This document shows positions 1-15,307 of a stretch of 15,307 bases of DNA, one piece after another. The notes below the pieces were generated by a model. It was not told where the DNA came from. It searched no databases and saw only the letters and a list, made by a program, of their open reading frames with translations. Position 1 is the stretch's first letter. Every line of letters begins with the position of its first letter. Source of the DNA: a virus (Duplodnaviria > Heunggongvirae > Uroviricota > Caudoviricetes); IMG/VR virus record IMGVR_UViG_2617270953_000003, positions 1 through 15,307 of that record; one strand, written 5' to 3'. The position numbers and the translations under genes were made by a program.

Positions 1-1
1 G

Positions 2-346
2 TTAGTCCTTGCGTAGCTCGCTGATTCTTCTGTAAGTCTCTGGTGCTTTGTTCCCGTACGTCTTCATTTCAGACTTCAACAGAGCAACGAGTGAATCCCA
101 TTCGTTGAGGATTCCTTTGAATGCCGGAACGCGCTTTGCAACCTTGTCGAATGAATCTCTGATTTCTGGAATCTGCTCAACAAGTGCAACGCATCGTCGG
201 AAATCTGCTGCGTCATGTGGAGCGCCGAAGTGATGACCATAGATATTCTTTTTCAGTCCACATGCGATTGAGGCAATAGTTGCGCTACTGATGCCGACAT
301 CGCCAGTCGATTGCCATTTCAAAACCTTCATAGCCAAATCTGACAT
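2..346 (-). CDS. hypothetical protein (about 114 aa), early-left accessory gene
   Basis: Complete ORF with stop at 2-4. The tracked ATG at 373 lies inside a terminator hairpin; the internal ATG at 344-346 (MSDLAMKV...) has a GGAGA Shine-Dalgarno about 7 nt upstream. No family recognised. Confidence 0.5.
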   Translation of the reverse strand: MSDLAMKVLKWQSTGDVGISSATIASIACGLKKNIYGHHFGAPHDAADFRRCVALVEQIPEIRDSFDKVAKRVPAFKGILNEWDSLVALLKSEMKTYGNKAPETYRRISELRKD

Positions 347-360
347 TTCTTGTCTCCAAT

Positions 361-382
361 AAAAAACCGCCATCAGGCGGCT
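361..382 (-). terminator. intrinsic terminator (5-bp GC stem ccgcc/ggcgg, 4-nt loop, T6 tail on minus strand)
   Basis: Plus strand reads aaaaaa-ccgcc-atca-ggcgg; read on the minus strand this is a hairpin followed by TTTTTT. Confidence 0.55.
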
Positions 383-446
383 TGGTGTTCTTTCAGTTCT
401 TCAATTCGAATATTGGTTACATTGTTTTCATATATGAATAAATAAA

Positions 447-626
447 TTAGCTTTTTTCGTTGCCTTCGCTTTCTTTATTAATTTTGACAAACTCGTTTTT
501 ACCACGCTCTCCAAATGCGTCTTTAGAGTCGTTGTATCCGCAATCGCAGCACACATAATCATCAGACCATCCACGCATTGTTTTTTCTTTTGCAATATTT
601 CCAGAACCGCATTTTGGACAAGACAT
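447..626 (-). CDS. small zinc-ribbon protein (59 aa, two CxxC pairs)
   Basis: ATG at 624-626 preceded by GGAGG at 7 nt spacing; protein MSCPKCGSG...CCDCGY has a CxxC...CxxC arrangement. Confidence 0.5.
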   Translation of the reverse strand: MSCPKCGSGNIAKEKTMRGWSDDYVCCDCGYNDSKDAFGERGKNEFVKINKESEGNEKS

Positions 627-722
627 ATCACTACCTCCAAAGCATGAGTGAGATGACAACGTAACATTGATTGGAGATTAACAATAGATTGCTGATGTAA
701 AAGATATGTATAAGCTTCGCTT

Positions 723-1361
723 TCAAAGTGGAGGCTCTGGTAGCGGCATCCAGTGTGACGGCTCACATACCCCCTCAACACCATTCATGTAAAAGAATTG
801 AAATAACCCTTTACCTTTGTGAAACCCTACCATCTGCTCTTTAGTGTCTGAGCAATAAACCAAAACATCTTCTTCGTTTGGCATTCGATCACTACAGCTT
901 ATCCAACCATCAGGAGTTACCGGAGAGTTGCCACCGGGAATATTTTCCGGAATATTTTGTTGTGCGTTTTGTGGTTGTTCGGATTTACCCTGAAGCATGG
1001 CGGCGCGGCAGGCGTTCCAGCCAGCTGTTCGCCCAAGCGCGTAAACTTCAGATGGCTCAAGATAATCAATGTCATGCCCATCCTCATCGTCGTTCTCAGG
1101 TAATGCAGCAGGTACTACCGGTACTGGCGGAGCGGCGTAGACTTCAATAATCCCATTATCAATAGGCCATTCCCCATCCTTGATGTAGTCACTTGTGCCG
1201 TCAACTTGCTGTTCTGCAATGTGGAATGCGCCAATAGGCTCTGCTTCCAGCGATGCCAGTGCGATTTCATAAGCCCGACGCTCAATATTGTCTCGGACGT
1301 CCAGGCTGCCTATACGCTCTTTGATTTCTTTAATCAGTTCTTTGTCGGTGAACGTTGTCAT
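723..1361 (-). CDS. DUF551-like phage protein (212 aa)
   Basis: C-terminal ...VLVYC...VGF...FF...HWMPLPEPP resembles the DUF551 signature common in lambdoid early-left regions; AAGGA RBS 5-6 nt upstream of the ATG. Confidence 0.55.
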   Translation of the reverse strand: MTTFTDKELIKEIKERIGSLDVRDNIERRAYEIALASLEAEPIGAFHIAEQQVDGTSDYIKDGEWPIDNGIIEVYAAPPVPVVPAALPENDDEDGHDIDYLEPSEVYALGRTAGWNACRAAMLQGKSEQPQNAQQNIPENIPGGNSPVTPDGWISCSDRMPNEEDVLVYCSDTKEQMVGFHKGKGLFQFFYMNGVEGVCEPSHWMPLPEPPL

Positions 1362-1371
1362 GTGTTAGTCC

Positions 1372-1635
1372 TTATCCTGCTGTGCTTTCAACTGATGAGG
1401 GGAATAAAATCTTTTCATCAAATCCGGCATTCATATCATGGACAGCAACACACCAATCCACCGACGAACGATTATCAAGAGCCTCCATGATTTCATCCAT
1501 GCGGCGTAGGTCATAAAGGTAAATGCTTTTATCGCCAATGGTGTAAAAACCAATTTTTTTCGGTGATGGACAGCGATCAAGAACGTCCTGTAATTCGCTC
1601 AACCATGCTTGTTCTTTTTTTGTCAAAGTTGCCAT
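1372..1635 (-). CDS. hypothetical protein (87 aa)
   Basis: ATG at 1633-1635 with AAGGAG RBS at 6 nt spacing; tightly packed against flanking genes. Confidence 0.5.
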   Translation of the reverse strand: MATLTKKEQAWLSELQDVLDRCPSPKKIGFYTIGDKSIYLYDLRRMDEIMEALDNRSSVDWCVAVHDMNAGFDEKILFPSSVESTAG

Positions 1636-1636
1636 A

Positions 1637-2128
1637 TCACTCTCCTTTGATGCGAATGCCAGTGGTACTCATTCTCCTGATTTCCCAGAGCACACGAGGA
1701 ACACCACCGTTTCCGACCGGATCGCGCTTACTCCGCATGGCGACGCTTGATTCCGCCCAGCTTTTTCTTGGAGGAAGCTCTTTCACACGAACAAAACCAG
1801 CTGCGCGAAGAGATGCTCCTGATTCATCTGCCTGGGTGTACGTAATACAACGTTGATAACCCATAGCCTTTGCTGCCCGCCAGACAGCACCATAAAGCGC
1901 GCTGTTAGCGTTGCGTTCTCCTGTGGTACATGTGCGATTTACTTCAAGCGTTAATCCATCGTCCAAATGTCGTGCAACAGGTCGACCAGCTGTCGCCACA
2001 CCTATCAATTCTCCGGCATTATTTCTCAGACCAATGCTGAATTTATGCCCCACTGGTGGTTTATTGTGTCGGTGGTGCTGTGCGATAAATTCCTGCGCCG
2101 CTTTCAGCGTTATAGGTGAAATGACCAT
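1637..2128 (-). CDS. hypothetical protein (163 aa), possibly GNAT-fold-like
   Basis: ATG at 2126-2128 with AGGAGG RBS; overlaps the upstream stop by 1 nt (TGATG). Weak GNAT-like pattern (...GVATAG..., ...ALYGAVWRAAKAMGY...AAGF). Confidence 0.5.
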   Translation of the reverse strand: MVISPITLKAAQEFIAQHHRHNKPPVGHKFSIGLRNNAGELIGVATAGRPVARHLDDGLTLEVNRTCTTGERNANSALYGAVWRAAKAMGYQRCITYTQADESGASLRAAGFVRVKELPPRKSWAESSVAMRSKRDPVGNGGVPRVLWEIRRMSTTGIRIKGE

Positions 2129-2607
2129 CACTCAGACTCCTCCTTGATGCCAGCGGCGCGGGAATCATTCCATCGCTTTACTTCTTCACTAATTACGTCA
2201 ATGCATTCTTTCGAATCCATTAGGTAATCTTCATCAAAAAGACGTTCCTGTTCGTTTTCTATCGCAACAATGATTGCTTCAACTAATTTTTGTGCCTGAG
2301 AATCACTTTCTAACTCTGCAATGCGCTTACTCCCATCCGAGATAACACCTTCGTAATACTCACGCTGCTCGTTGAGTTTTGATTTTGTCTCCTCAAGCTC
2401 AACACGCAGCTTCCCTACCGTTAGCGCAATATCCTCGTTCTCCTGGTCGCGGCGTTTGATGTATTGCTGGTTTCTTTCCCGTTCATCCAGTAGTGCCAGC
2501 ACAACCTGAGGTGTGACCTTCATACGAAATGCCAGCAATTTTTGTGGTGTGGCTGCTATTTTTATTGCTTCTGCCGCATCACGCAGTGCCTGATAGTCAA
2601 TTGTCAT
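2128..2607 (-). CDS. coiled-coil-rich phage protein (159 aa), Ea22-type slot
   Basis: ATG at 2605-2607 overlaps the upstream stop (ATGA). Sequence rich in E/K/R/L/Q heptad-like stretches. Confidence 0.5.
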   Translation of the reverse strand: MTIDYQALRDAAEAIKIAATPQKLLAFRMKVTPQVVLALLDERERNQQYIKRRDQENEDIALTVGKLRVELEETKSKLNEQREYYEGVISDGSKRIAELESDSQAQKLVEAIIVAIENEQERLFDEDYLMDSKECIDVISEEVKRWNDSRAAGIKEESE

Positions 2608-3248
2608 TCTCGCCATCCTTCACAGTTGTAATCACTACAGCCTTCAAAATCATATGGGCTGTACTGCCAGGAGATTTTTCCGCAATGCGGACAATTCCAA
2701 CGCACCTTCCCGCTTCGCGACTTCTTTCTTCTGTTCTGCTCTTTCAACCAGTCAGGCATGACCAAACCTGCGCCCTGAACCATTGTTCTGCGGTTAAAGT
2801 TATTGATATTGAACGTCCTGCGCTTTGCTGCATCAGCAATGGAAAATGGCAACCAAACTATTCCTGGTTCGTTTTTGTTGGCGACGCTAAAGATGGTCGC
2901 TTTACTGAAGTCATCTGTTGGCAATCCACCGTGTTGAAGCCAGTAAACATCGTTGCCGTTCCAGCTACCTTTTTTGTAGGCCACATACGCAGTGCAATCT
3001 GACTCAATCAGGCTTTCTGTAGGGATGTACTGGCAATCAACGTGCCACACTGCCATTGCATCCACGCTATCAGCGCAAACAGGCTGATCGATATCTCGCC
3101 CACAATTCCAGGCTTTTTGGGCTTCTTCCAGCGTGTAAACATGAGCGCGATCGATATCAGAACTGTAACCATTGCCGTTATGGCAATGGAATGAAGCGTT
3201 ATTGCCCACAGTTTCACGCGAGCACATCATGTAAAAACGGTTAGTCAC
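2604..3248 (-). CDS. hypothetical protein with Cys/His clusters (214 aa), GTG start
   Basis: AAGGAGG RBS (plus-strand cctcctt at 3255-3261) 6 nt upstream of GTG at 3246-3248, overlapping the upstream stop (GTGA). C-terminal CPHCG...C...C and N-terminal CHNGNG motifs. Confidence 0.5.
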
Positions 3249-3412
3249 TGGCTGCCTCCTTTGCGCCACATCGCATTCAGATATTTGTTTTCATTCACTG
3301 ATGGAAAAGAATTTCTCTTAAGTAATTCCTCTCTCGATGGCATTGGCTTTACGCGTTGGCGAATAATCATTTCTGCCGGAAGAATGCCGGGATTGTATGC
3401 AAGTCCTCTCAT
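3245..3412 (-). CDS. small hypothetical protein (55 aa)
   Basis: ATG at 3410-3412 with GAGGA RBS at 7 nt spacing; the longer tracked ORF (to 3562) overlaps the upstream gene and lacks an RBS. Confidence 0.35.
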
Positions 3413-3422
3413 GGTAAATTCC

Positions 3423-3716
3423 TCAGTCATTACTGATAGCGCCATAACGTGAGCGGTAATTACGCAGGCGCGGGTCAATTTCAGGGAAGTGGGTATATGT
3501 GGCTTTGCGGAATGGTCGGATTGATGTCTGGTAAATTCGCTCGCGTTCTTCTTTCTCTGCAAGCCATATACAGTGGCGAAATTCCTTTTCCTCTTTCGTT
3601 TCCTGCGGTAGAGACATTATCCGGTCGTAGTTTTTTCTGAATTTATCCAGCACCTCCGATACGGAATTGCCGGAACAGCGGCGCACGTCGTCCGCACCAT
3701 ACAGAGGCGCTGGCAT
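3423..3716 (-). CDS. Abc2-like (anti-RecBCD) candidate, 97 aa
   Basis: Sits promoter-distal to erf, where P22-like phages carry abc genes; similar size to P22 Abc2; AAGGA RBS. Identity is from recall and position only. Confidence 0.45.
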
Positions 3717-3739
3717 AATTAAATCCTTATTGTTCTAAA

Positions 3740-4123
3740 TCAGAATGGGATGGAATCGTCGTATACAGGAGTGTTCTGCTGGTTACTACTTTGCCGCTGC
3801 GGGCCATTTCCTGAAGCTGCAAATCCAATCTTTGCATTCAGTAATTCAAGAGTGATTGATTGACCATTTTGCCCCTGATAAACATCAACCCTGATGTTTT
3901 CTCCGGTAATTTCCACAATTCCACCTTCAACAAGAACACTACGGTAGTAATCCGCTTGCGCTCCCGGCTTGGCAAATACAACGGCGCTGTAGTTTATCCA
4001 TTCTTTCTTTTTTGTCTGGCGATCGTAATACTGAACGCCAGCACGGATGTTGAATCCGATATTTTCCCCGGCCTGAAACTCTCTTGCGGGCTTGTTTAGT
4101 CTTACAGTAATCGAATGTGCCAT
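3740..4123 (-). CDS. ssb: single-stranded DNA-binding protein (short SSB, 127 aa)
   Basis: C-terminal acidic tail ...PVYDDSIPF matches the SSB DDDIPF-type tail; ATG at 4121-4123 overlaps the erf stop (TAATG). Confidence 0.6.
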   Translation of the reverse strand: MAHSITVRLNKPAREFQAGENIGFNIRAGVQYYDRQTKKKEWINYSAVVFAKPGAQADYYRSVLVEGGIVEITGENIRVDVYQGQNGQSITLELLNAKIGFAASGNGPQRQSSNQQNTPVYDDSIPF

Positions 4124-4728
4124 TAAGCAGCCGCTCCTTCTAATTCGTCTCGTCTGATGTTGTAAACGTCCTGCGCTTTGTGCTGCTCCGGTGTGCCTTC
4201 GAGCATCTTCCACGCTTTGGCGAACGCCTGTTTAAGCTCTTCCACGGTGTTTTTCTGCATTGCTGCGTCAGTGAATGCTTTTAGAACCTGTTCAGGTGTA
4301 GGTGATGGTTTTGATTGCTTTGCTGCTGCGTTCTGCTGATGTTTATGCTCGTCTGTATCTGCATCTTTCGCATCATCAATGCCGAACAAACCATTAAGGC
4401 AATACTTGCGCGCATAAGAGCTTGTAGCTCCAGTAACTTGTGCAGAATCCATTCCTTTCTTGCTTTCTTCCTCTCTTGCGAGAGCGGTTGCCGTATGACT
4501 GTTTTCGCCATCGGTAATAGTTGCCGTGGCTTTCACGTAATACCGATCACCAATCAACACAACTTCATCGCTGATTGATAAAAACAGGCCATTCAGTAAC
4601 GGCTTAACGCCTTCAAGAATGTCTTCGCAGCTTCTGTATTTATATTTACCGAATGAGTTGTACTGATTCTTTGGCGCGTTCAGATTCTCCTGAATAGCTG
4701 CCAGTCTTGCATAAAATTCTTTGCTCAT
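4123..4728 (-). CDS. erf: Erf-family single-strand annealing recombinase (201 aa)
   Basis: N-terminus MSKEFYARLA...NAPKNQYNSFGKYKYRSCEDILEGVKPLL matches my recall of P22 Erf; ATG at 4726-4728. Confidence 0.8.
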   Translation of the reverse strand: MSKEFYARLAAIQENLNAPKNQYNSFGKYKYRSCEDILEGVKPLLNGLFLSISDEVVLIGDRYYVKATATITDGENSHTATALAREEESKKGMDSAQVTGATSSYARKYCLNGLFGIDDAKDADTDEHKHQQNAAAKQSKPSPTPEQVLKAFTDAAMQKNTVEELKQAFAKAWKMLEGTPEQHKAQDVYNIRRDELEGAAA

Positions 4729-4829
4729 ATGATTGTTCTCAGAATGGACACGGCCCAAGGAAATAACGCTGATTTAATACTTCTACTCGGGACAAATTAA
4801 GGCATACCCGCATTCCTTCGCGGTCGCCA

Positions 4830-4988
4830 TTATGGCGATACCAGAGAGCTTTCTGCGTGTACATGCGTCTCTGTAACTTGCTCTCCTTCACTGTGGTTGC
4901 AAGTGACATGAATATCTCCTTCGTTACCGATTAAATCTTTCATCTGACGAATGAATTCTTCGTCTGACCAGTTATCTGTAAAACTCAT
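4830..4988 (-). CDS. small hypothetical protein (52 aa) in the kil position
   Basis: ATG at 4986-4988 overlaps the stop of the CIII-like gene (ATGA coupling); no recognisable family. Confidence 0.4.
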   Translation of the reverse strand: MSFTDNWSDEEFIRQMKDLIGNEGDIHVTCNHSEGEQVTETHVHAESSLVSP

Positions 4989-5155
4989 GGGCGGCCTTGT
5001 TGTTTCAAAATATCCCAAAGCTTTTCGAGCAAGCTTTTCATTCTTGGTTGTTTAAAGTCTGCTCCGGTTAAAATATTTTTTCGTGAATGCTGCACCGATA
5101 AAATCGGGTTGAAAGGGCGAACCGATGCCGCCCCTGCAATAGCGAACTGTTGCAT
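4985..5155 (-). CDS. CIII-like protein (56 aa; FtsH/HflB inhibitor family)
   Basis: Start MQQFAIAG resembles lambda CIII MQYAIAG; amphipathic LLEKLWDILKQ segment; AAGGAG RBS 6 nt upstream of ATG at 5153-5155. Confidence 0.5.
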   Translation of the reverse strand: MQQFAIAGAASVRPFNPILSVQHSRKNILTGADFKQPRMKSLLEKLWDILKQQGRP

Positions 5156-5238
5156 AGGATGCTCCTTCTGTTTGATTGCATAACGAAAATGCCTCTCGTG
5201 AAGCATTATTGGTATGCGGTAAAGCCGCGCTTGGCGGC

Positions 5239-5655
5239 TTATTTGAAGATTTCTATGAAATCAAGAACTGATGATATTTCGTGGTTGAACGATTTTCTTT
5301 TGTATCTTTCTATCGCAGAATCCACCTGGTGTTTATAGTCATCGTCGTTTGAGTATTTAACGAAGCATTCTATTGTCTCAGGCGTTACAGCTATAAGGCT
5401 CCACCAACCTTCATCAGATTGATATTCAAATCCCATGCTTTCAAGCCATCCAGCATATTTCCCTCCAGCATCTTGCCAGTGTGTTTTTTCTGCAAGGAAG
5501 CTGTTAACCGTCATATGTGCATCAAGGCATTTATCCAACTGTTTACCATTAAGTAGCCATGCGCTGACAGTTGCACAACCCAAATCAACTGATTGAGTAG
5601 AGATATTGAATTGGTCGTAATTATCTGGATTAACCAGAATATCTGTAATTTTCAT
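5239..5655 (-). CDS. hypothetical acidic, Trp-rich protein (138 aa), ea10-position cargo
   Basis: ATG at 5653-5655 with GGAGG RBS at 4 nt; immediately preceded by an intrinsic terminator; no family recognised. Confidence 0.55.
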   Translation of the reverse strand: MKITDILVNPDNYDQFNISTQSVDLGCATVSAWLLNGKQLDKCLDAHMTVNSFLAEKTHWQDAGGKYAGWLESMGFEYQSDEGWWSLIAVTPETIECFVKYSNDDDYKHQVDSAIERYKRKSFNHEISSVLDFIEIFK

Positions 5656-5667
5656 AATTCCTCCGTC

Positions 5668-5696
5668 AAAAAAATTGCCCTCACACTGGAGGGCAA
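5668..5696 (-). terminator. intrinsic terminator within the pL operon (8-bp stem ttgccctc/gagggcaa, 6-nt loop, T7 tail on minus strand)
   Basis: Perfect 8-bp inverted repeat at 5675-5682 and 5689-5696 with an A7 run at 5668-5674 (T7 on the minus strand). Confidence 0.6.
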
Positions 5697-5830
5697 AGAA
5701 GATTTCCAATAATCAGAACAAGTCGGCTCCTGTTTAGTTACGAGCGACATTGCTCCGTGTATTCACTCGTTGGAATGAATACACAGTGCAGTGTTTATTC
5801 TGTTGTTTATGCCAAAAATGAAGGCCACCA

Positions 5831-6031
5831 TCAGGCAGCCTTGTTGTTCTGTTTACCAAGTTCTCTGGCAATCATTGCCGTCGTTCGTATTGCCCATTTA
5901 TCGACATATTTCCCATCCTCCATTACAGGAAACATTTCTTCAGGCTTAACCATGCATTCCGATTGCAGCTTGCATCCATTGCATCGCTTGAATTGTCCAC
6001 ACCATTGATTTTTATCAATAGTCGTAGTCAT
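5831..6031 (-). CDS. ral: Ral restriction-alleviation protein (66 aa)
   Basis: Sequence MTTTIDKNQWCGQFKRCNGCKLQSEC... matches my recall of lambda Ral; correct size and position downstream of N. Confidence 0.6.
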   Translation of the reverse strand: MTTTIDKNQWCGQFKRCNGCKLQSECMVKPEEMFPVMEDGKYVDKWAIRTTAMIARELGKQNNKAA

Positions 6032-6101
6032 ACGGATAGTCCTGGTATTGTTCCATCACATCCTGAGGATGCTCTTCGAACTCTTCAAATTCTTCTTCCA
6101 T
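6015..6101 (-). CDS. acidic 28-aa ORF (lambda orf28-like), overlaps ral start
   Basis: Hand-translated MEEEFEEFEEHPQDVMEQYQDYPYDYDY; GAGGTGA RBS 4-5 nt upstream of ATG at 6099-6101. Below the track's size cutoff. Confidence 0.3.
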   Translation of the reverse strand: MEEEFEEFEEHPQDVMEQYQDYPYDYDY

Positions 6102-6159
6102 ATATCACCTCAAATAAGTGGTTTGCTGCCTAATTTTATTTTCTGGCGACCAACACAAG

Positions 6160-6543
6160 TCATCTCGCCGTCAGTTGTTTTGATTTCCGGTATCCTGCTG
6201 CGTAAAGAGCTACATTTGGAAGACATACACCAGTTTCTGGTTGCTTATGTCCAAACTCATTCGCGTACACAATGGCCGCTCTCTCCAGATTGCGTCTGTA
6301 TTCTTTCTGTTGCCAGATCACGTCCTGTGCCATGAACTTAATTGGCTTAGCGTCTTCTATGCGCTCAGGCGTTTCGTGAGTACCTTTAGCCTGAATCTGC
6401 GCTCTGCTTAGAGTAGGGCGGTGTAATACTTCTGAACTTATTGCTTCTTCGCGGGCCAGTACGCCGTTAGCTAATGCCTTTGCCTTTAAACGCTCACGAC
6501 GACGAGAACGTGAATTGCCTTTGAACTGAGTTCTGCGTGTCAT
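6160..6543 (-). CDS. N: N-type transcription antiterminator, P22 gene-24-like (127 aa)
   Basis: AGGAGG RBS 6 nt upstream of ATG at 6541-6543; N-terminal arginine-rich motif RRTQFKGNSRSRRRERLKAK; C-terminus ...VALYAAGYRKSKQLTAR resembles P22 N; first gene after pL and nutL. Confidence 0.7.
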   Translation of the reverse strand: MTRRTQFKGNSRSRRRERLKAKALANGVLAREEAISSEVLHRPTLSRAQIQAKGTHETPERIEDAKPIKFMAQDVIWQQKEYRRNLERAAIVYANEFGHKQPETGVCLPNVALYAAGYRKSKQLTAR

Positions 6544-6671
6544 ATAGACCTCCTGGTGAACTTTGGCGGTGAATACAGCCGGGCGACTAACTCCGGTAGC
6601 GTAATCATTGCAAAGCGCCTCCGCCGAGAAGGTTAGCTTCTGCATTCACCCCAAAGTTCACTTTGGTTATT

Positions 6672-6686
6672 GCGCTTTGTCAGCGC
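6672..6686 (-). promoter_or_regulatory. nutL boxB hairpin, P22 type (GCGCUGACAAAGCGC on the transcript)
   Basis: Plus strand gcgctttgtcagcgc is the reverse complement of GCGCTGACAAAGCGC: 5-bp stem with GACAA loop, between pL and N. Confidence 0.7.
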
Positions 6687-6754
6687 CGTAGATTCATATT
6701 TGAATCGTTGTATATTCACCGCCCTGGTGAGTAGTGCGTCCTGCTGATGTGTTT

Positions 6755-6817
6755 AGTATCACCGCCAGTGGTATTTATGTCAACACCGCTAGAGATAATT
6801 CATCACCGCAGATGGTT
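6755..6817 (-). promoter_or_regulatory. OL1-OL2-OL3 operators and pL promoter (lambda immunity type)
   Basis: 17-mers tatcaccgccagtggta (6757-6773), caacaccgctagagata (6781-6797), catcaccgcagatggtt (6801-6817); on the minus strand -35 TTGACA (6778-6783) and -10 GATACT (6755-6760). Confidence 0.85.
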
Positions 6818-6902
6818 ATCTGTATGTTTTTTATATGAATTTATTTTTTGCAGGGGTGCATTGTTTGGTAGGTGAGAGATCTGAACTGCTATGTTTAGTG
6901 AG

Positions 6903-6932
6903 TTGTATCTATTTATTTTCAAATAGATACAA
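6903..6932. repeat. perfect 12-bp inverted repeat with 6-bp spacer (ttgtatctattt-attttc-aaatagatacaa)
   Basis: Arms 6903-6914 and 6921-6932 are exact reverse complements; AT-rich; lies between the tImm-like terminator and OL3. Confidence 0.6.
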
Positions 6933-6970
6933 TTGGTTATGTGTTCTTGGGTGAGGGGGATCGTGAGGCA

Positions 6971-6995
6971 AAGAAAACCCGGCTCTGTGGCCGGG
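6971..6995 (-). terminator. tImm-like intrinsic terminator ending the cI operon
   Basis: Stem cccggc/gccggg (6978-6983, 6990-6995), 6-nt loop, TTTTCTT tail on the minus strand; begins about 10 nt after the stop at 7004. Confidence 0.6.
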
Positions 6996-7003
6996 AATAA
7001 CAT

Positions 7004-7382
7004 TTAGGAATCAAGGTCAGGTAGCATGATTTTCTCAATCAACGTCAATGCCCTTTGGTCTCGTTCAGCAAAATATTTAGGAGCGTACTGAGGCAGCCAC
7101 ACTTCGTTGAAGTATTGTTTGAAATCTGCAATATTCGTTTGGGTATAGACGTACCGGGAATGTCCGGCCATCTGGGTACTCATGGTTATATGTTGGGAAT
7201 GTCTTCGGCTCACCCCCCCGGTTGTCACGGAGCCATTGCGAGAAAACCCTACCCTCTGAAATATCAGGGACCATTTTTTCTGGCAGCGTATATCCGGCCT
7301 GTTCAAGTGGCGCAACCAAGTTAAACGTCAGTTCATTAAGCATAGAAAAGTGCGTATGAGGAACTCTGCCTCGGTTTGTCAT
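7004..7382 (-). CDS. rex-slot ORF split across two frames: frame A 7077-7382 (101 aa) and frame B 7004-7327 (+1 offset); possible frameshifted gene
   Basis: Two overlapping minus-strand ORFs offset by +1 share a C7 tract (7213-7219; G7 on the coding strand) and an A6/T6 tract (7275-7280). Frame B ends 10 nt before the terminator; frame A has a poor RBS. Confidence 0.35.
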
Positions 7383-7421
7383 ATACCGCTTAAGGTGGAT
7401 AGGGAGTTCGGCAGGCGCTCT

Positions 7422-7763
7422 TTAACCTGACATCCACTCACGCACCCATCTCGATACTTGCACTGCAAATTTTGGAGATAGCCACTGAGCTAAATTAATT
7501 GCGATGTCTGGATGAACCCAAGTCCCTTGATTCTCTGCTCTTCCGCCTTTAAATGATTGAATTAACTCCGATATGGGAATCCCCATATCGCGTGATAATT
7601 CATCAAAAAAATCTTGTGTTGTTTTTAGTCGTGTATAGTCAGCAAGTAGCTTCCCCGCAGACTTGCACATCGCGGTGGCATTGATGTATCCGTCTTTGGT
7701 GCGAAGATGGATGACTTCTCCATCAACTTCTCTAGCGATTAATGCAAGTTGAAATTGTGTCAT
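7422..7763 (-). CDS. KilA-N domain protein (113 aa), directly downstream of cI
   Basis: Motifs DGYINATAMCK...GTWVHPDIAINLAQWLSPKFAVQVSRWV are typical of the KilA-N (APSES-like) DNA-binding domain; AGGA RBS; starts 31 nt after the cI stop. Confidence 0.75.
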   Translation of the reverse strand: MTQFQLALIAREVDGEVIHLRTKDGYINATAMCKSAGKLLADYTRLKTTQDFFDELSRDMGIPISELIQSFKGGRAENQGTWVHPDIAINLAQWLSPKFAVQVSRWVREWMSG

Positions 7764-7794
7764 AAATCATCCTATTACGTGAAAAATAAAACAA

Positions 7795-8511
<717 letters not shown>

Positions 8512-8518
8512 TTAAATC

Positions 8519-8584
8519 TATCACCGCAAGGGATAAACTTCTAACACCGTGCGTGTTGACTATTTTACCTCTAGCGGTGATAAT
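8519..8584. promoter_or_regulatory. OR3-OR2-OR1 operators with divergent pRM (minus) and pR (plus) promoters
   Basis: OR3 tatcaccgcaagggata (8519-8535), OR2 taacaccgtgcgtgttg (8542-8558), OR1 tacctctagcggtgata (8566-8582); pR -35 TTGACT (8556-8561) and -10 GATAAT (8579-8584) with 17-bp spacing. Confidence 0.9.
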
Positions 8585-8608
8585 GGTTGCCTGTACTAAG
8601 GAGGTTGT

Positions 8609-8809
8609 ATGGAACAACGCATAACCCTGAAAGATTATGCAATACGCTTTGGGCAAACCAAGACGGCTAAAGATCTCGGCGTATATCAAAGCGCGATTAA
8701 CAAGGCCATTCATGCAGGCCGAAAGATTTTTTTAACTATAAACGCTGATGGAAGCGTTTATGCGGAAGAAATAAAGCCCTTCCCAAGTAACAAAAAAACA
8801 ACTGCATAA
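8609..8809 (+). CDS. cro: Cro repressor, lambda type (66 aa)
   Basis: Sequence matches my recall of lambda Cro apart from about two conservative substitutions; AAGGAGG RBS. Confidence 0.95.
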
Positions 8810-8816
8810 GTAACAC

Positions 8817-8862
8817 CGCTCTTTTCACAATGGACATTCGTCCTACGTCGCTGACAAAGCGA
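8817..8862 (+). promoter_or_regulatory. nutR: boxA-like CGCTCTTTT (8817-8825) and P22-type boxB tcgct-gacaa-agcga (8848-8862)
   Basis: Same GACAA-loop, 5-bp-stem hairpin as nutL; located between cro and the cII-like gene. Confidence 0.65.
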
Positions 8863-8892
8863 GCCCCAAGATATCTGACCAACTAAGGCCAT

Positions 8893-8908
8893 ATGCGTTT
8901 CCACGCAT
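8893..8908 (+). terminator. weak hairpin (atgcgt-ttcc-acgcat) in the tR1 position
   Basis: 6-bp stem and 4-nt loop with a poor T tail; lambda tR1 is Rho-dependent, so a role here is uncertain. Confidence 0.25.
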
Positions 8909-8946
8909 ACCTTTCAACTAACTATTCACTATTGGAAAATTAACAA

Positions 8947-9243
8947 ATGACACAAGCAAGTTATAGCAAGCCAACACAGCGAGAAATTGATCGCGCTGAA
9001 ACTGATTTACTCATCAACCTGTCAACGCTTACCCAGCGCGGTCTGGCAAAGATGATTGGCTGTCATGAATCGAAGATAAGCAGAACGGACTGGAGGTTTA
9101 TTGCTTCGGTCTTGTGTGCTTTCGGAATGGCATCAGACATCAGTCCGATTAGCAGGGCTTTTAAGTATGCATTGGATGGAATCACAAAGAAAAAATCCCC
9201 GGCCGCCACCGAGGATTTTAAGCAAATTGATATGCAATTCTGA
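8947..9243 (+). CDS. cII: CII-like transcriptional activator (98 aa), not the lambda allele
   Basis: Helix-turn-helix region ...GLAKMIGCHESKISRTDW... and C-terminal KKKSPAATEDFKQIDMQF parallel lambda CII, but overall sequence is divergent. Confidence 0.7.
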   Translation: MTQASYSKPTQREIDRAETDLLINLSTLTQRGLAKMIGCHESKISRTDWRFIASVLCAFGMASDISPISRAFKYALDGITKKKSPAATEDFKQIDMQF

Positions 9244-9275
9244 GGTCATTACTGGATCAATCTACAGGAGTAATT

Positions 9276-9437
9276 ATGACAAAACGTCGTAAGAAATACC
9301 AGGAAAAAGAAGAGATTCGACACCCTGATTCACCTGAGGGATTAGTGGTAGCCGCAGCAAATAACAGGGCGTTCGCAGAGCGCCTTGTTGGTGTTTACAG
9401 ACTAGCCAAAGTAGGAGTGAAACATGGGCGTCGTTAA
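9276..9437 (+). CDS. small basic ORF (53 aa) between cII and the replication gene
   Basis: Hand-translated MTKRRKKYQEKEEIRHPDSPEGLVVAAANNRAFAERLVGVYRLAKVGVKHGRR; CAGGAG RBS 5 nt upstream of the ATG; 3' end overlaps the replication-gene start by 14 nt. Confidence 0.35.
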   Translation: MTKRRKKYQEKEEIRHPDSPEGLVVAAANNRAFAERLVGVYRLAKVGVKHGRR

Positions 9438-10314
9438 GTTAGCTGATTACAGGCATAACCCTGTACAACATCAGGAGGCATCCAGTATGGGGTATGTCTC
9501 TATACACCGCCAGTTTATGGACAGCAGGCTCTATAAGGACTCTCAGGCAGTACATCTTTGGCTTCACTTAATCCTCAAGGCTAATCACGAATCTACTGTC
9601 GTCAATACGGATATCGGTCCGATAACTGTTGATCGCGGTCAGATGATAACTGGACGCCCGTCGCTGGTCAGAGAAACATTCATCCCCGACAACAAAGTTC
9701 GGAGCTTATTACGGACTTTTGAGTCGAAAGGTATGCTTAATATTTGCTCGATGGGGAAGAAATTTAGCCTGTTTACAATCGTTAAATATGACGATTTTCA
9801 GGCAAAAAATTGTCCAACGGTTGTCCAACAGTTGTCCAACGCAAACACCAGTAATGGTGCGGCTCTCAGCGGAGATTGTCCAACGGTTGTCCAACAGTTG
9901 TCCATAAACAATAATATAAATAATATCTCTAATACTGACGTATTAGAGAGTGCTACAGCAGACAAAAAGTCTGACAAGAAAAAACCTTCCGTCAGCTGTC
10001 AGGATGTTGTCGATGCTTACCACGAAATCCTTCCTGAAGCGCCAAGAATCCGCGCACTGAATGACAAGCGTAAAAACCAGATCCGAACGTTCTGGCGCAA
10101 AGCCGGAGTGATAACCCGCCAGCTTGACGGACATGGGTTCACGATGCAGGACTGGAGAAATTATTTGAGCTACGTAGGCGAAAATTGCCGATGGATGTTC
10201 GAAGAGCGTCCAAACCATCAACGCGGAACTGTCTGGCACAAAAAGGGATTTGATTTCCTGCTTAACGATAATACCTACCTGAAAGTTCGTGAGGGTGAAC
10301 ACGATGACCGATAA
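9424..10314 (+). CDS. replication initiator (O-like, non-lambda allele) with the origin inside the gene
   Basis: AGGAG RBS; O-type N-terminal region; iteron array embedded in the coding sequence (encoding repeated CPTVVQQLS); followed by a DnaB-family helicase gene. Confidence 0.8.
   Translation: MGVVKLADYRHNPVQHQEASSMGYVSIHRQFMDSRLYKDSQAVHLWLHLILKANHESTVVNTDIGPITVDRGQMITGRPSLVRETFIPDNKVRSLLRTFESKGMLNICSMGKKFSLFTIVKYDDFQAKNCPTVVQQLSNANTSNGAALSGDCPTVVQQLSINNNINNISNTDVLESATADKKSDKKKPSVSCQDVVDAYHEILPEAPRIRALNDKRKNQIRTFWRKAGVITRQLDGHGFTMQDWRNYLSYVGENCRWMFEERPNHQRGTVWHKKGFDFLLNDNTYLKVREGEHDDR
9810..9950. repeat. origin iterons: two copies of a 3 x TTGTCCAAC array (9810-9840 and 9876-9906) plus AT-rich tract (9906-9950)
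   Basis: ttgtccaacGGttgtccaacAGttgtccaac occurs twice about 66 bp apart (last unit of the second copy is ttgtccata), followed by aaacaataatataaataatatctctaatactgacgtattagag. Confidence 0.8.
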
Positions 10315-11740
10315 TTTTTATGCGCCGCCCCATAGCATCGAGGCAGAGCAGGCGGTGATTGGTGGATTGCTTCTGGATGATGACAGCAGTGAGCGCGTCC
10401 AGAAGGTTCTGGCGATGCTGAAGCCTGATTCATTTTACAGCCGGCCACACAAAATCCTTTTCGAAGAAATAACCAGAATGCACCGGGAGCAAAAGCCAGT
10501 AGATGGCCTGACGCTTTTCGATGAACTGGAGCGTAAATCGTTAACTGTGTCTGTTGGCGGTTTTGCTTATATCGCTGAGATCGCAAAGAACACGCCAAGC
10601 GCAGCAAACATCGTTGCCTATGCAATGCAGGTTCGTGAAACCGCAATGGAACGCTACGCCATCAACCGCATGACTGAAGCGACGGAATTGCTCTATTCCC
10701 GCAACGGAATGACTGCAACGCAGAAGTACGAAGCTATTCAGTCGATTTTCACGCAACTGACAGACCATGCAAAAACCGGATCGCGTCGCGGCCTTCGTTC
10801 ATTTGGTGAGGTCATGGAAGACTGGGTTAGCGACCTTGAGAAGCGATTTGACCCATCAGGCGAACAACGGGGAATGAGCACAGGGATCCCATCGCTGGAC
10901 AGGATGCTGTCACCGAAAGGTCTGGTGAAAGGCTCTCTGTTTGTCATTGGCGCTCGCCCTAAGATGGGGAAAACGACGCTATACAGCCAGATGGCAATCA
11001 ATTGCGCAGTGCATGAGAAAAAGCCCGCTTTGATGTTCAGCCTTGAAATGCCAGGTGATCAGATACTGGAAAAACTGGTAGGGCAGAAGTCTGGTGTTAA
11101 CCCGAATATTTTTTACCTTCCGGCGACAAATGACGCTGATGACGGCTATCAGGGTGATTACGATGGTGACTTCAACAGGGCGATCGAAACAGCCAATCGC
11201 TTGAGTGAAATCGACCTGCTTTACATCGACGACACGCCGGGATTATCTCTGGCTCAAATCGTCAGCGAAAGTCGTCGAATCAAGCGAGAAAAAGGATGTG
11301 TTGGCATGATTCTGGTCGATTACCTGACACTAATGACCGCTGAGAAGGCCGATCGCAACGACCTTGCTTACGGCATGATCACCAAAGGACTGAAGAACCT
11401 TGCCAAAGAGCTTGATTGTGTTGTTGTGCTTCTGACACAGCTTAACCGCGCACTGGAAAGCCGAACCAATAAACGCCCATTACCAAGTGACTCCCGAGAT
11501 ACAGGGCAGATTGAACAGGATTGCGATTATTGGGTTGGGATCCATCGTGAAGGTGCTTTTGATGACAGTGTTCCACCTGGTGAAACCGAACTAATCCTTC
11601 GTCTCAATCGTCATGGCAATACCGGCACGGTGTATTGCATTCAGGCAAATGGAGCTATTTATGACACAGACCAACAGTCTGCTGAAATGCGCCGCCGTGA
11701 ACGCGAGGAACCGCAGTCCAAGAAGAAAGGAGGATTCTGA
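10304..11740 (+). CDS. DnaB-family replicative helicase (P22 gene-12-like), 478 aa
   Basis: N-terminus ...FYAPPHSIEAEQAVIGGLLLD... is the classic DnaB start; Walker A GARPKMGKT; ATG at 10304 overlaps the end of the upstream gene. Confidence 0.9.
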   Translation: MTDNFYAPPHSIEAEQAVIGGLLLDDDSSERVQKVLAMLKPDSFYSRPHKILFEEITRMHREQKPVDGLTLFDELERKSLTVSVGGFAYIAEIAKNTPSAANIVAYAMQVRETAMERYAINRMTEATELLYSRNGMTATQKYEAIQSIFTQLTDHAKTGSRRGLRSFGEVMEDWVSDLEKRFDPSGEQRGMSTGIPSLDRMLSPKGLVKGSLFVIGARPKMGKTTLYSQMAINCAVHEKKPALMFSLEMPGDQILEKLVGQKSGVNPNIFYLPATNDADDGYQGDYDGDFNRAIETANRLSEIDLLYIDDTPGLSLAQIVSESRRIKREKGCVGMILVDYLTLMTAEKADRNDLAYGMITKGLKNLAKELDCVVVLLTQLNRALESRTNKRPLPSDSRDTGQIEQDCDYWVGIHREGAFDDSVPPGETELILRLNRHGNTGTVYCIQANGAIYDTDQQSAEMRRREREEPQSKKKGGF

Positions 11741-11768
11741 TGACCATCTACATCACTGAGCTAATAAC

Positions 11769-11800
11769 AGGCCTGCTGGTAATCGCAGGCCTTTTTATTT
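11769..11800 (+). terminator. tR2-like intrinsic terminator (8-bp stem aggcctgc/gcaggcct, 8-nt loop, TTTTTATTT tail)
   Basis: Perfect inverted repeat at 11769-11776 and 11785-11792 followed by a T-rich run, between the helicase gene and ninB. Confidence 0.65.
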
Positions 11801-11816
11801 GGGGGAGAGGGAAGTC

Positions 11817-12257
11817 ATGAAAAAACTAACCTTTGAAATTCGATCTCCGGCACATCAGCAAAACGCTATTCACGCAGTACAGCAAATCCTTCCAGACCCA
11901 ACCAAGCCAATCGTAGTGATCATTCAGGAGCGCAACCGCAGCTTAGACCAGAATCGGAAGCTTTGGGCTTGCCTTGGTGACGTCTCTCGTCAGGTTGAAT
12001 GGCATGGGCGTTGGCTGGATGCAGAAAGCTGGAAGTGTGTGTTTACCGCAGCATTAAAGCAGCAGGACGTTGTTCCTAACCTTGCCGGGAATGGCTTTGT
12101 GGTAATAGGCCAGTCAACCAGCAGGATGCGTGTAAGCGAATTTGCGGAGTTATTAGAGCTTATACAGGCATTCGGTACAGAGCGTGGCGTTAAGTGGTCA
12201 GACGAAGCGCGACTGGCTCTGGAGTGGAAAGCGAGATGGGGAGACAGTGCTGCATGA
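11817..12257 (+). CDS. ninB: NinB (Orf family recombination mediator)
   Basis: Protein MKKLTFEIRSPAHQQNAIHAVQQILPDPTKPIVV... matches my recall of lambda NinB; real start is the internal ATG at 11817. Confidence 0.9.
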   Translation: MKKLTFEIRSPAHQQNAIHAVQQILPDPTKPIVVIIQERNRSLDQNRKLWACLGDVSRQVEWHGRWLDAESWKCVFTAALKQQDVVPNLAGNGFVVIGQSTSRMRVSEFAELLELIQAFGTERGVKWSDEARLALEWKARWGDSAA

Positions 12258-12781
12258 CTATCAAATCAAATACGCCAGCACACGACAAGGACTGCTGGCA
12301 AACGCCGCTCTGGCTTTTTGATGCACTGGATATTGAGTTTGGATTCTGGCTGGATTCGGCAGCGAGCGACAAAAATGCTCTGTGCGCTCACTGGCTAACT
12401 GAGGCTGACAACGCGCTCAATTCTGAGTGGATAAGCCACGGTGCAATCTGGAATAACCCACCGTACAGCAATATCAGGCCGTGGGTGGAAAAAGCCGCTG
12501 AGCAGTGCATACAACAGCGACAGACGGTAGTGATGCTTGTGCCAGAGGATATGTCAGTCGGATGGTTCAGCAAGGCTCTGGAGAGTGTTGACGAAGTTCG
12601 TATTATCACTGATGGACGGATTAATTTTATCGAACCATCGACAGGGCTGGAGAAAAAGGGAAACAGCAAAGGCTCCATGCTGCTGATTTGGCGACCGTTC
12701 ATCAGTCCTCGACGGATGTTTACTACCGTATCCAAAGCGGCATTGATGGCGATCGGGCAGGGCGTCAGGAGGGCAGCATGA
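12254..12781 (+). CDS. dam: phage DNA N6-adenine methyltransferase (Dam family), in the ninC/ninD slot
   Basis: Catalytic NPPY motif (IWNNPPYSN); ATGA overlap with the ninB stop; size about 175 aa. Confidence 0.8.
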
Positions 12782-12960
12782 GACGACAGCGACGAAGTAT
12801 CACCGACATCATCTGCGAAAACTGCAAATACCTTCCAACGAAGCGCTCCAGAAATAAATGCAAGCCAATCCCAAAAGAATCTGACGTAAAAACCTTCAAC
12901 TACACGGCTCACCTGTGGGATATCCGGTGGCTTAGAGAACGTGCGAGGAAAACAAGGTGA
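12778..12960 (+). CDS. ninE: NinE (60 aa)
   Basis: [27 protein letters not shown]... matches my recall of lambda NinE; ATGA overlap with the dam stop. Confidence 0.85.
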
Positions 12961-13127
12961 TTGACCAAAATCGAAGTTACGAACAAGGAAGTGTCGAGCG
13001 AGCTTTAACGTGCGCTAACTGCGGTAAGAAGCTGCATGTGCTGGAAGTTCACGTGTGTGAGCACTGCTGCGCAGAACTGATGAGCGATCCGAATAGCTCA
13101 ATGTACGAGGAAGAAGACGATGAATGA
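12957..13127 (+). CDS. ninF: NinF (56 aa, GTG start, four-Cys motif)
   Basis: Hand-translated (V/M)[55 protein letters not shown]; GTGA overlap with the ninE stop; resembles lambda NinF. Confidence 0.8.
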
Positions 13128-13842
13128 GTTAATAAATGGCAATGCCATCAAAATGACAAGCATTGAAATCGCTGAGTTGGTTGGTAAGCGTCATGACAAT
13201 GTGAAACGTACCATCGAAACGCTGGCTAAAAATGGTGTTATCCGGCTTCCTCAAATTGAGGATTGTGGAAGAATCAATGGGTTAGGCTTAAATCAAAGTT
13301 TTTGTGTGTATGTATTCGAAGGCGAACAAGGAAAGCGAGACAGTATTGTCGTTGTAGCCCAGTTGTCGCCGGAATTCACCGCTCGTCTTGTTGACCGTTG
13401 GCGAGAGCTTGAAGAAACTGCGGTTAATATCCCCAAAACGCTACCAGAAGCGTTGCGCCTTGCTGCTGATCTTGCTGAGCAGAAAATGCAACTGGAAAAC
13501 CAGCTCGCAATTGCCGCACCTAAAGTTGAGTTTGCCGATCGCGTTGGCGAGGCCAGCGGAATTTTGATTGGAAACTTTGCAAAGGTTGTTGGAATTGGTC
13601 CAAACAAACTGTTTGCGTGGATGCGCGATCACAAAATCCTTATTGCTTCAGGTTCCCGGCGCAATGTGCCAATGCAGGAATATATGGATCGCGGCTATTT
13701 CACAGTGAAAGAAACAGCGGTCAACACAAATCACGGAATACAGATATCGTTCACCACAAAAATCACCGGCCGTGGTCAACAGTGGCTGACCAGAAAGCTG
13801 CTCGATAACGGAATGCTGAAAGTAACAGGGGAGGCTGCTTAA
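13120..13842 (+). CDS. phage antirepressor-like protein (Rha-type N-terminal region plus KilAC/ANT-type C-terminal region), Roi-like, 240 aa
   Basis: N-terminus ...MTSIEIAELVGKRHDNVKRTIETLAKNGVI... is Rha-family-like; C-terminal half resembles antirepressor KilAC; GAGGAAG RBS; overlaps the ninF end. Confidence 0.65.
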   Translation: MNELINGNAIKMTSIEIAELVGKRHDNVKRTIETLAKNGVIRLPQIEDCGRINGLGLNQSFCVYVFEGEQGKRDSIVVVAQLSPEFTARLVDRWRELEETAVNIPKTLPEALRLAADLAEQKMQLENQLAIAAPKVEFADRVGEASGILIGNFAKVVGIGPNKLFAWMRDHKILIASGSRRNVPMQEYMDRGYFTVKETAVNTNHGIQISFTTKITGRGQQWLTRKLLDNGMLKVTGEAA

Positions 13843-14132
13843 TGGCTAACCTACGCAAAGAAGCGCGCGGCAGAGAATGCCAGGTACGTATTTACGGCGT
13901 ATGCAATGGTAATCCTGAAACTACAGTTCTGGCACATTACCGGATGGCTGGAATTTGCGGAACGGGAATGAAGCCTGACGACCTGATCGGCGCATGGGCT
14001 TGTAGCGCGTGTCACGATGAAATCGATCGACGTACCCATAACCTCGACAACAAAGACGCCAGACTTTACCACCTCGAAGGCGTAATCAGGACGCAGGCGA
14101 TACTGCTGAAGGAGGGGAAGATTAAGTCATGA
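13842..14132 (+). CDS. ybcO: YbcO-like DUF1364 protein (putative nuclease, 96 aa)
   Basis: MANLRKEARGRECQVRIYGVCNGNPETTVLAH...CSACHDEIDRR resembles DLP12 YbcO; TAATG overlap upstream and ATGA overlap downstream. Confidence 0.7.
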   Translation: MANLRKEARGRECQVRIYGVCNGNPETTVLAHYRMAGICGTGMKPDDLIGAWACSACHDEIDRRTHNLDNKDARLYHLEGVIRTQAILLKEGKIKS

Positions 14133-14524
14133 AAACCTACCGAATAAAATTGCCGTGGCCTCCTTCAAACAACCGATATTGGCGACACTCAAGAGGGATC
14201 CACTACATCAGCGACTGGGGGAAGAGATACCGAAAAGAAGTAATCGAATTAATCCAGCAACAACAGCTAGACATCAAAATCACACCTCGCATCAGAATAA
14301 CCATCCACGCAGCACCTCCCGATAACCGCAAACGAGATTTGGACAATCTGCCCAAAGCCGTTTTTGACGCACTCACCAGTGCGGGCTTCTGGCTGGATGA
14401 CGGTCAGATAGACGATATGCGCATCAAGCGCTATCAGGCGATTAAAGGTGGAATGCTTGTGTTGGTTGTGACTGAAACATGCGGGAGTTTGCCAATGATT
14501 ACAGAGCTACTGGAGGCCGCATGA
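14129..14524 (+). CDS. rusA: RusA Holliday-junction resolvase (131 aa)
   Basis: M.TY.I.LPWPPSNNRYWRH...RDLDNL.KAVFDALTSAGFWLDD matches the RusA signature. Confidence 0.85.
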   Translation: MKTYRIKLPWPPSNNRYWRHSRGIHYISDWGKRYRKEVIELIQQQQLDIKITPRIRITIHAAPPDNRKRDLDNLPKAVFDALTSAGFWLDDGQIDDMRIKRYQAIKGGMLVLVVTETCGSLPMITELLEAA

Positions 14525-14727
14525 CGTTCTCAGTAAAAACCATTCCAGACATGCTCGTTGAAGCATACGGAAACCAGACAGAAGTAGCACGCAGACTGAA
14601 ATGTAGTCGCGGCACGGTAAGAAAATACGTTGATGATAAAGACGGGAAAATGCACGCCATCGTCAACGACGTTCTCATGGTTCATCGCGGATGGAGTGAA
14701 AGAGATGCGCTATTACGAAAGAATTGA
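14521..14727 (+). CDS. ninH: NinH (68 aa)
   Basis: [68 protein letters not shown] matches my recall of lambda NinH; ATGA overlap with the rusA stop. Confidence 0.85.
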
Positions 14728-15307
14728 TGGCAGCAAATACCGAAATATTTGGGTAGTTGGCGATCTGCACGGTTGCTACACGAACCTGATGAACAAACTG
14801 GATACGATTGGATTCGACACCAAAAAAGACCTGCTTATCTCGGTTGGCGATTTGGTCGATCGCGGTACAGAGAACGTTGAATGCCTGGAATTAATCACAT
14901 TCCCCTGGTTCATAGCTGTACGTGGAAACCATGAGCAAATGATGATTGATGGCTTATCAGAGCGTGGAAACGTCAATCACTGGCTGCTTAATGGCGGTGG
15001 CTGGTTCTTTAATCTCGATTACGACAAAGAAATTCTGGCTAAAGCTCTTGCCCATAAAGCAGATGAACTTCCGTTAATCATTGAACTGGTGAGCAAAGGT
15101 AAAAAATATGTTATCTGCCACGCCGATTATCCTTGTGACGAATACGAGTTTGGAAAGCCAGTTGTTCATCAGCAGGTAATCTGGAACCGCGAACGAATCA
15201 GCAACTCACAAGACGGGATCGTAAAAGAAATCAAAGGAGCGGACACGTTCATCTTTGGTCATACGCCAGCAGTGAAACCACTCAAGTTTGCCAACCAAAT
15301 GTATATC
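14705..15307 (+). CDS. ninI: Ser/Thr protein phosphatase NinI (lambda PPase / orf221 family), 3' end beyond window
   Basis: Frame 2 from ATG at 14705 translates [29 protein letters not shown]...GDLVDRG...RGNHE..., the metallophosphatase GDxHG/GDxxDRG/GNHE motifs; absent from the track because no stop occurs before the window end. Confidence 0.85.

Follow-up and report, generated by a model that had tools for sequence, protein, structure and literature searches.

The DNA considered here is a stretch of 15,307 nucleotides (positions 1 to 15,307 of the IMG/VR virus record IMGVR_UViG_2617270953_000003, class Caudoviricetes), which is called the window throughout. It covers the early region of a mosaic lambdoid phage or prophage of the HK97/mEp type. 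N, cI, O-like, ERF, and SSB genes are present, and a DnaB-type replication helicase gene lies 5' of its ninB region. The subject of this account is a small gene between ninB and ninE that is predicted to encode an N6-adenine DNA methyltransferase. The gene, its immediate neighbors and the signals around it are as follows (window coordinates).

11769..11802, + strand: tR2-like intrinsic terminator, a hairpin (11769-11792) and T-run just 5' of ninB, AGGCCTGC...GCAGGCCT
11817..12257, + strand: ninB, 146 aa; Pfam PF05772 at E=7e-54; 96% nucleotide identity to lambda ninB
12240..12243, + strand: GGAG, a Shine-Dalgarno-like element 10 nt 5' of the methyltransferase ATG, within the 3' end of ninB
12254..12781, + strand: predicted N6-adenine DNA methyltransferase gene, 175 aa, 528 bp; ATG at 12254-12256, TGA at 12779-12781
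12350..12367, + strand: LDSAAS, residues 33-38, at the end of the first beta-strand (model strand E31-36); L33, D34, and A36 are family-invariant
12455..12466, + strand: catalytic motif IV, NPPY (N68, P69, P70, Y71), residues 68-71; invariant in the family and placed after model strand E64-68
12778..12960, + strand: ninE, 60 aa; Pfam PF05322 at E=1.7e-42

The 175-residue protein matches only one Pfam family, PF05869 ("DNA N-6-adenine-methyltransferase (Dam)"; E=3.3e-65, 219.3 bits against a cutoff of 28.1), and the match spans positions 1-167 of the 169 in the profile. The NCBIfam equivalog TIGR01712 ("phage N-6-adenine-methyltransferase") is covered from end to end (1-165 of 165; 264.9 bits against a cutoff of 97.05), and PHROG 111 is matched as well (E=7.6e-88). 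An earlier sequence-only reading had proposed an orphan N6-adenine methyltransferase with an NPPY motif at 12254-12781. Both parts of that proposal hold, in that the open reading frame (ORF) has exactly these limits, the three family matches concur, NPPY falls at residues 68-71, and its direct neighbors, ninB and ninE, include no restriction enzyme gene. More broadly, the flanking genes encode NinB, NinE, NinF, an Ant/Roi-like protein, YbcO, and RusA, with no cognate restriction endonuclease beside the methyltransferase, which is thus a solitary one. The arrangement is identical, again with no adjacent restriction endonuclease, in every phage and Escherichia coli record listed.

The gene is intact, conserved and under purifying selection. 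In an alignment of 31 sequences that share 58-98% identity, the window protein keeps all 47 invariant columns, NPPY included. Comparison with the copies in phages 434, HK97, and VT2-Sakai gave 7-12 synonymous and 2 non-synonymous differences each, with ratios of non-synonymous to synonymous substitution rates (dN/dS) of 0.04-0.08. Very probably, then, the product of the ORF is a working enzyme of the PF05869/TIGR01712 family of small phage N-6-adenine-methyltransferases, a view that is part of the best explanation set out below. Two other ways of reading this DNA were set aside. A GTG at 12194 would give a protein of 195 aa, but the family profile starts only at residue 24 of that product, and annotated orthologues all begin at the ATG of the ATGA described below. 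An antisense ORF at 12388-12912 (174 aa) has no significant family match and was treated as a shadow of the coding strand.

The closest relatives point to the target of the enzyme. The window protein is identical to VT2-Sakai orf32 (NP_050531) at 173 of 175 residues, the only differences being D53N and V60I, and both positions are variable in the family alignment. The HK97 and 434 copies also differ from it by two residues each. The genes of VT2-Sakai (orf32), HK97 (gp62), and 434 (annotated "DNA adenine methyltransferase" in 434) resemble the window gene in their 528-bp length, their position between ninB and ninE, and their ATGA overlaps. What differs is the flanking mosaic, in that Roi/Ant-like, YbcO, and RusA genes take the place of NinG downstream in the window phage. 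Within the 60.9-kb VT2-Sakai genome orf32 is the only annotated methyltransferase. By elimination, therefore, orf32 would be M.EcoVT2Dam, the target of which is reported to be GATC (Radlinska and Bujnicki, 2001, as cited in PMC6602927 and PMC7139368). Given the near-identity to orf32 and this reported target, the window enzyme most likely methylates the N6 position of adenine in GATC, the site of host Dam. Codon 53 (12410-12412) encodes N in the window and D in 434, HK97, and VT2-Sakai; D or N occurs at this position across the family, and the change is probably neutral. The 528-bp "dam" coding sequence of Phi24B is 100% identical to that of VT2-Sakai NP_050531 and 99% identical to HK97 gp62; lysogen cultures were found to express it, at a level that shifted significantly on induction (PMC3342100).

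The position of the gene also fits what had been read from the sequence, namely that it fills the slot of lambda ninC and ninD. Gene order is NinB-methyltransferase-NinE-NinF in the window and NinB-NinC-NinD-NinE-NinF in lambda. BLASTN against lambda gave 96% identity over 11739-12257, that is, from the tR2 region to the exact ninB stop, and the similarity resumes at 12785, 7 nt into ninE. A break and return at these points indicate a clean cassette swap at gene boundaries. In other words, the methyltransferase gene appears to be an interchangeable cassette of the lambdoid ninB-ninE interval and stands in place of lambda ninC plus ninD. The junctions at 12257 and 12785 make a textbook case of module exchange in the nin region at gene boundaries.

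Coupling to ninB and expression from the nin operon had been proposed as well, and the local sequence bears both out, the second by analogy with lambda. The TGA of ninB (12255-12257) shares bases with the methyltransferase ATG to form ATGA at 12254-12257. A second ATGA, at 12778-12781, is formed by the methyltransferase TGA and the ATG of ninE (12778-12780). These overlaps are directly readable from the sequence, and ATGA packing is characteristic of nin regions (PMC8022706). At the place equivalent to the GGAG element at 12240..12243, phage 434 has an annotated ribosome-binding site. Some protein database entries (P0001, P0014, P0024, and P0116) have the methyltransferase fused to NinE or NinB domains, for example a 233-aa protein with PF05869 plus PF05322. 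Frameshifts or gene-calling errors at the ATGA junctions probably account for these entries, which would then not be true fusions.

The tR2-like hairpin consists of an 8-bp stem with 6 GC pairs and is followed by the tail TTTTATTT; the homologous site in phage 434 carries a terminator annotation. In lambda, the genes past tR2 lie in the pR delayed-early transcript and need antitermination by N. A tR2-like terminator ahead of ninB therefore suggests that transcription of the window nin genes needs N as well. A search of the segment between this terminator and the methyltransferase gene for promoter-like sites found none. Across 3.8 kb there was one promoter-like site where 4.1 were expected. 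This site, at 12579-12606 within the gene, is a single 9-of-12 match and was considered non-functional, as such sites are rarer here than chance would have it. The gene thus has the marks of a delayed-early nin gene (location on the pR strand past the tR2 equivalent, ATGA overlaps and an order as in lambda) and would belong to the N-dependent pR delayed-early transcript.

What kind of methyltransferase is this? An AlphaFold2 model (predicted local distance difference test score 85.2, predicted template modeling score 0.85) consists of one domain, in which beta and alpha elements alternate, plus a C-terminal helix (residues 161-174), and has the class I Rossmann-like fold of S-adenosylmethionine (AdoMet)-dependent methyltransferases. 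From the architecture of gamma-class methyltransferases, LDSAAS is likely to be the equivalent of AdoMet-binding motif I. No separate target-recognition domain was seen in the model. Judging from the model, candidates for the reading of GATC are a conserved loop plus hairpin (residues 120-141) and the WQTP segment at the N terminus. The model appears closest to PCIF1 and to gamma-class enzymes such as M.TaqI, although these matches are weak. Structural alignments with PCIF1, gamma-class enzymes, and type I M subunits extend over 133-147 residues, whereas those with E. coli Dam, T4 Dam, and DpnM cover just 104-108 residues at 7-11% identity.

The last three enzymes belong to the alpha-class (PF02086). 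They have DPPY, chains of 241-258 residues in the solved structures and a recognition domain inserted between the motifs; the window enzyme has NPPY, 175 residues and no target-recognition domain between its motifs. The alpha-class architecture (FxGxG motif I, inserted target-recognition domain, DPPY) is thus not that of the window protein, and a search of this protein for PF02086 gave no match at E<=0.01 or at E<=0.1. Given this and the short alignments to E. coli Dam, T4 Dam, and DpnM, the window protein is a functional analogue of host Dam that stands outside the Dam family. A passage of PMC7139368 likewise speaks of a functional analogue and not a Dam family member. The gamma-class enzymes differ in another way. 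M.TaqI, M.BseCI, type I HsdM, and CamA have a large C-terminal recognition domain or a specificity subunit, whereas the window enzyme has only one helix (161-174) beyond the core. Members of PF05869 in T1-like phages (Drexlerviridae) and in Vibrio, Klebsiella, Lactococcus, and Campylobacter phages share 30-43% identity with it over 80-97% of the length (tblastn). Often these relatives exceed it in length (phage damhaus, 233 aa). They come from virulent phages, and their genomic contexts are unrelated to the nin region, with helicase and VRR-NUC genes as neighbors. Two further members of the PF05869 family, T1 Dam and Haemophilus HP1 Dam, are known GATC methylases (cited in PMC7139368, among others).

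Two possible equations with other phage adenine methyltransferases were rejected. The first concerns M.EcoPA8orf6770P/M.EcoGV of Shiga toxin (Stx) phages, a ribosomal RNA (rRNA) methyltransferase. Like the window gene, it is annotated "DNA adenine methyltransferase" or "Dam homolog" in Stx/lambdoid prophages. Both types are also said to act on GATC when over-produced, in the relevant passages of PMC10810198 and PMC6602927, and the two genes can share one prophage (PMC6602927). However, M.EcoPA8orf6770P/M.EcoGV and the window gene are distinct. The former has a DPPW motif, a METTL3/14-like fold, a place at the left end of the prophage and a partner, PNB-2. The window protein has NPPY, its gene lies in the nin region and METTL3-METTL14 structures come no higher than Foldseek ranks 45-49 (E>=0.1). 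A search for DPPW in orf4 of VT2-Sakai, at the left genome end, found none. The second equation, with the non-specific adenine methyltransferases Hia5/Hin1523, fails because those are Dam/DpnM relatives of about 280 aa with DPPY and FxGxG, and they too are unrelated to the PF05869 family.

This gene has been described before, occurs widely and is annotated as a matter of routine. With megablast the ninB-methyltransferase-ninE segment was found in 427 phage records at 90-99% identity, in the same order in all the records listed. Carriers include HK97 (gp62), 434, HK140, mEp phages, Sf6, SfI, and many Stx1/Stx2 phages. Among 5426 complete E. coli genomes, 1566 (about 29%) have the gene, which the records listed annotate as "phage N-6-adenine-methyltransferase" and place between NinB and NinE; its conservation over more than 1500 of these genomes is 95-99%. 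At the protein level the family is larger still, with 1919 phage records by tblastn, including T1-like, Klebsiella, Vibrio, Lactococcus, and Campylobacter phages, and 269 clusters across Enterobacterales in a protein database search. A full-text literature search that joined phage, Dam methyltransferase and ninB returned nothing.

The likeliest role of the enzyme is to top up limiting host Dam during lytic replication, because host Dam leaves the virion DNA of lambda and P22 only partly methylated (PMC8022706, PMC3299994). The proposed sequence of events is as follows. Transcription of the gene would come from pR and depend on N to pass the tR2-like terminator, and coupling to ninB would provide for its translation. 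During lytic growth the enzyme would supplement host Dam on rapidly replicating phage DNA, which would become fully GATC-methylated before packaging. Progeny might then be shielded from restriction systems that cut unmethylated GATC, and the methylated phage DNA would stay 'self' for Dam-dependent host processes. A single joint confidence is attached to this best explanation, covering family, GATC specificity, cassette, expression and role together, and it is high.

Several points weigh against this explanation. Lambda manages without the gene, and the nin region is non-essential. The GATC assignment hangs on one cloning paper from 2001, known via citations, and on the equation of orf32 with M.EcoVT2Dam. 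In addition, over-expressed Dam-like enzymes are capable of off-target activity, a caution quoted in a passage of PMC10810198. Nor does a 175-aa enzyme without a recognition domain have an obvious means to recognize GATC. A PDB sequence search for family relatives gave no hit, and Foldseek against the PDB gave no match at E<=0.001, the best being PCIF1 at 1.3e-3. Lastly, GATC is rarer than expected in the window (1-15307), with 38 sites where base composition predicts 59 and a Markov model 72.5; the methyltransferase gene itself has one site, at 12751. Such scarcity is mildly odd in a phage with a GATC methylase of its own, and would not be foreseen were full GATC methylation strongly beneficial. 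GATC under-representation is also typical of enterobacterial phages.

What if the enzyme acts mainly in the lysogen? As an epigenetic regulator it might add to or replace host Dam, and stabilize lysogeny or alter host gene expression. A lysogen role was suggested in the earlier sequence-only reading, as altered host gene regulation, and has also been proposed by the authors of the Phi24B study, in which an antiserum raised against lysogen cultures recognized the Phi24B Dam protein (PMC3342100), and stable 933W lysogeny requires host Dam (Murphy et al., 2008, as cited in PMC3342100). However, cells that were induced spontaneously can account for the signal from lysogen cultures. Expression of Phi24B dam shifted significantly with induction and was grouped with that of genes linked to the lytic cycle (PMC3342100). 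Moreover, the methylomes of carrier lysogens show GATC methylation only, at about 99.9%, which is indistinguishable from that of host Dam (PMC6602927). The location of the gene argues in the same direction. It lies downstream of the cI-repressed pR and behind the tR2-like terminator, and the stretch from terminator to gene offers no promoter-like site. A main role in the lysogen is therefore unlikely.

Because the protein has no recognition domain, it might instead not be a stand-alone methylase of duplex GATC. Perhaps it needs a partner, or its substrate might be replication or recombination intermediates, such as single-stranded DNA to which the translationally coupled NinB is bound, or RNA. 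There is a parallel in the Stx-phage "DNA adenine methyltransferase" M.EcoPA8orf6770P, which has been re-assigned as a two-subunit 16S rRNA methyltransferase. Nevertheless, such a reading is considered very unlikely for the window enzyme. Even more improbable, to the point of being barely credible, is that the gene is a decaying or inactive passenger that contributes nothing. The lambda nin region is indeed dispensable (PMC8022706), lambda holds other genes in the ninB-ninE slot and many database versions of the protein are truncated or fused. Yet a full-length ORF with all invariant residues, end-to-end coverage of the family profile, the low dN/dS of 0.04-0.08 and 95-99% conservation in more than 1500 genomes are hard to reconcile with decay. 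Supplementation of host Dam during lytic replication is thus preferred to each of these alternatives.

The identification itself matters little, given that the cloning of a near-identical orthologue had already led to GATC as its assigned target. Of wider interest, for the family as a whole rather than this window, are the selective benefit to a phage of copying the specificity of host Dam and the way in which GATC is read without a recognition domain.

Past ninF, the segments 13120-14524 and 14705-15307 (both + strand) hold genes for an Ant/Roi-like KilAC protein, YbcO, and RusA, which replace lambda NinG/Rap, followed by NinH and by an ORF for a NinI-like Ser/Thr phosphatase that is cut off by the end of the window. 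Two ORFs elsewhere also deserve mention. One, of 164 aa (1637-2131, - strand), lies in the early-left region and adjoins Ead/Ea22 and DUF551 genes. Its product scores 207 bits against NCBIfam NF045478 ('XF1762 family protein'; cutoff 50), matches PHROG 1384 ('Mom-like DNA modification protein') at E 4e-44 and hits the Pfam Mom family below threshold (24.2 bits against 27.1). Judging by these matches, it may be a second DNA-modification gene of the same phage. The other, of 113 aa (7422-7763, - strand), lies just downstream of cI in a rex/sieB-type moron slot. A search against NCBIfam gave no hit. Its matches are to PHROG 129 ('transcriptional regulator') and to PHROG 6287 ('BstA abortive infection system'; E 4e-28), the latter confined to the first ~120 residues, and it could encode either a truncated BstA or a short protein with a Bro-N/KilA-N-like domain.
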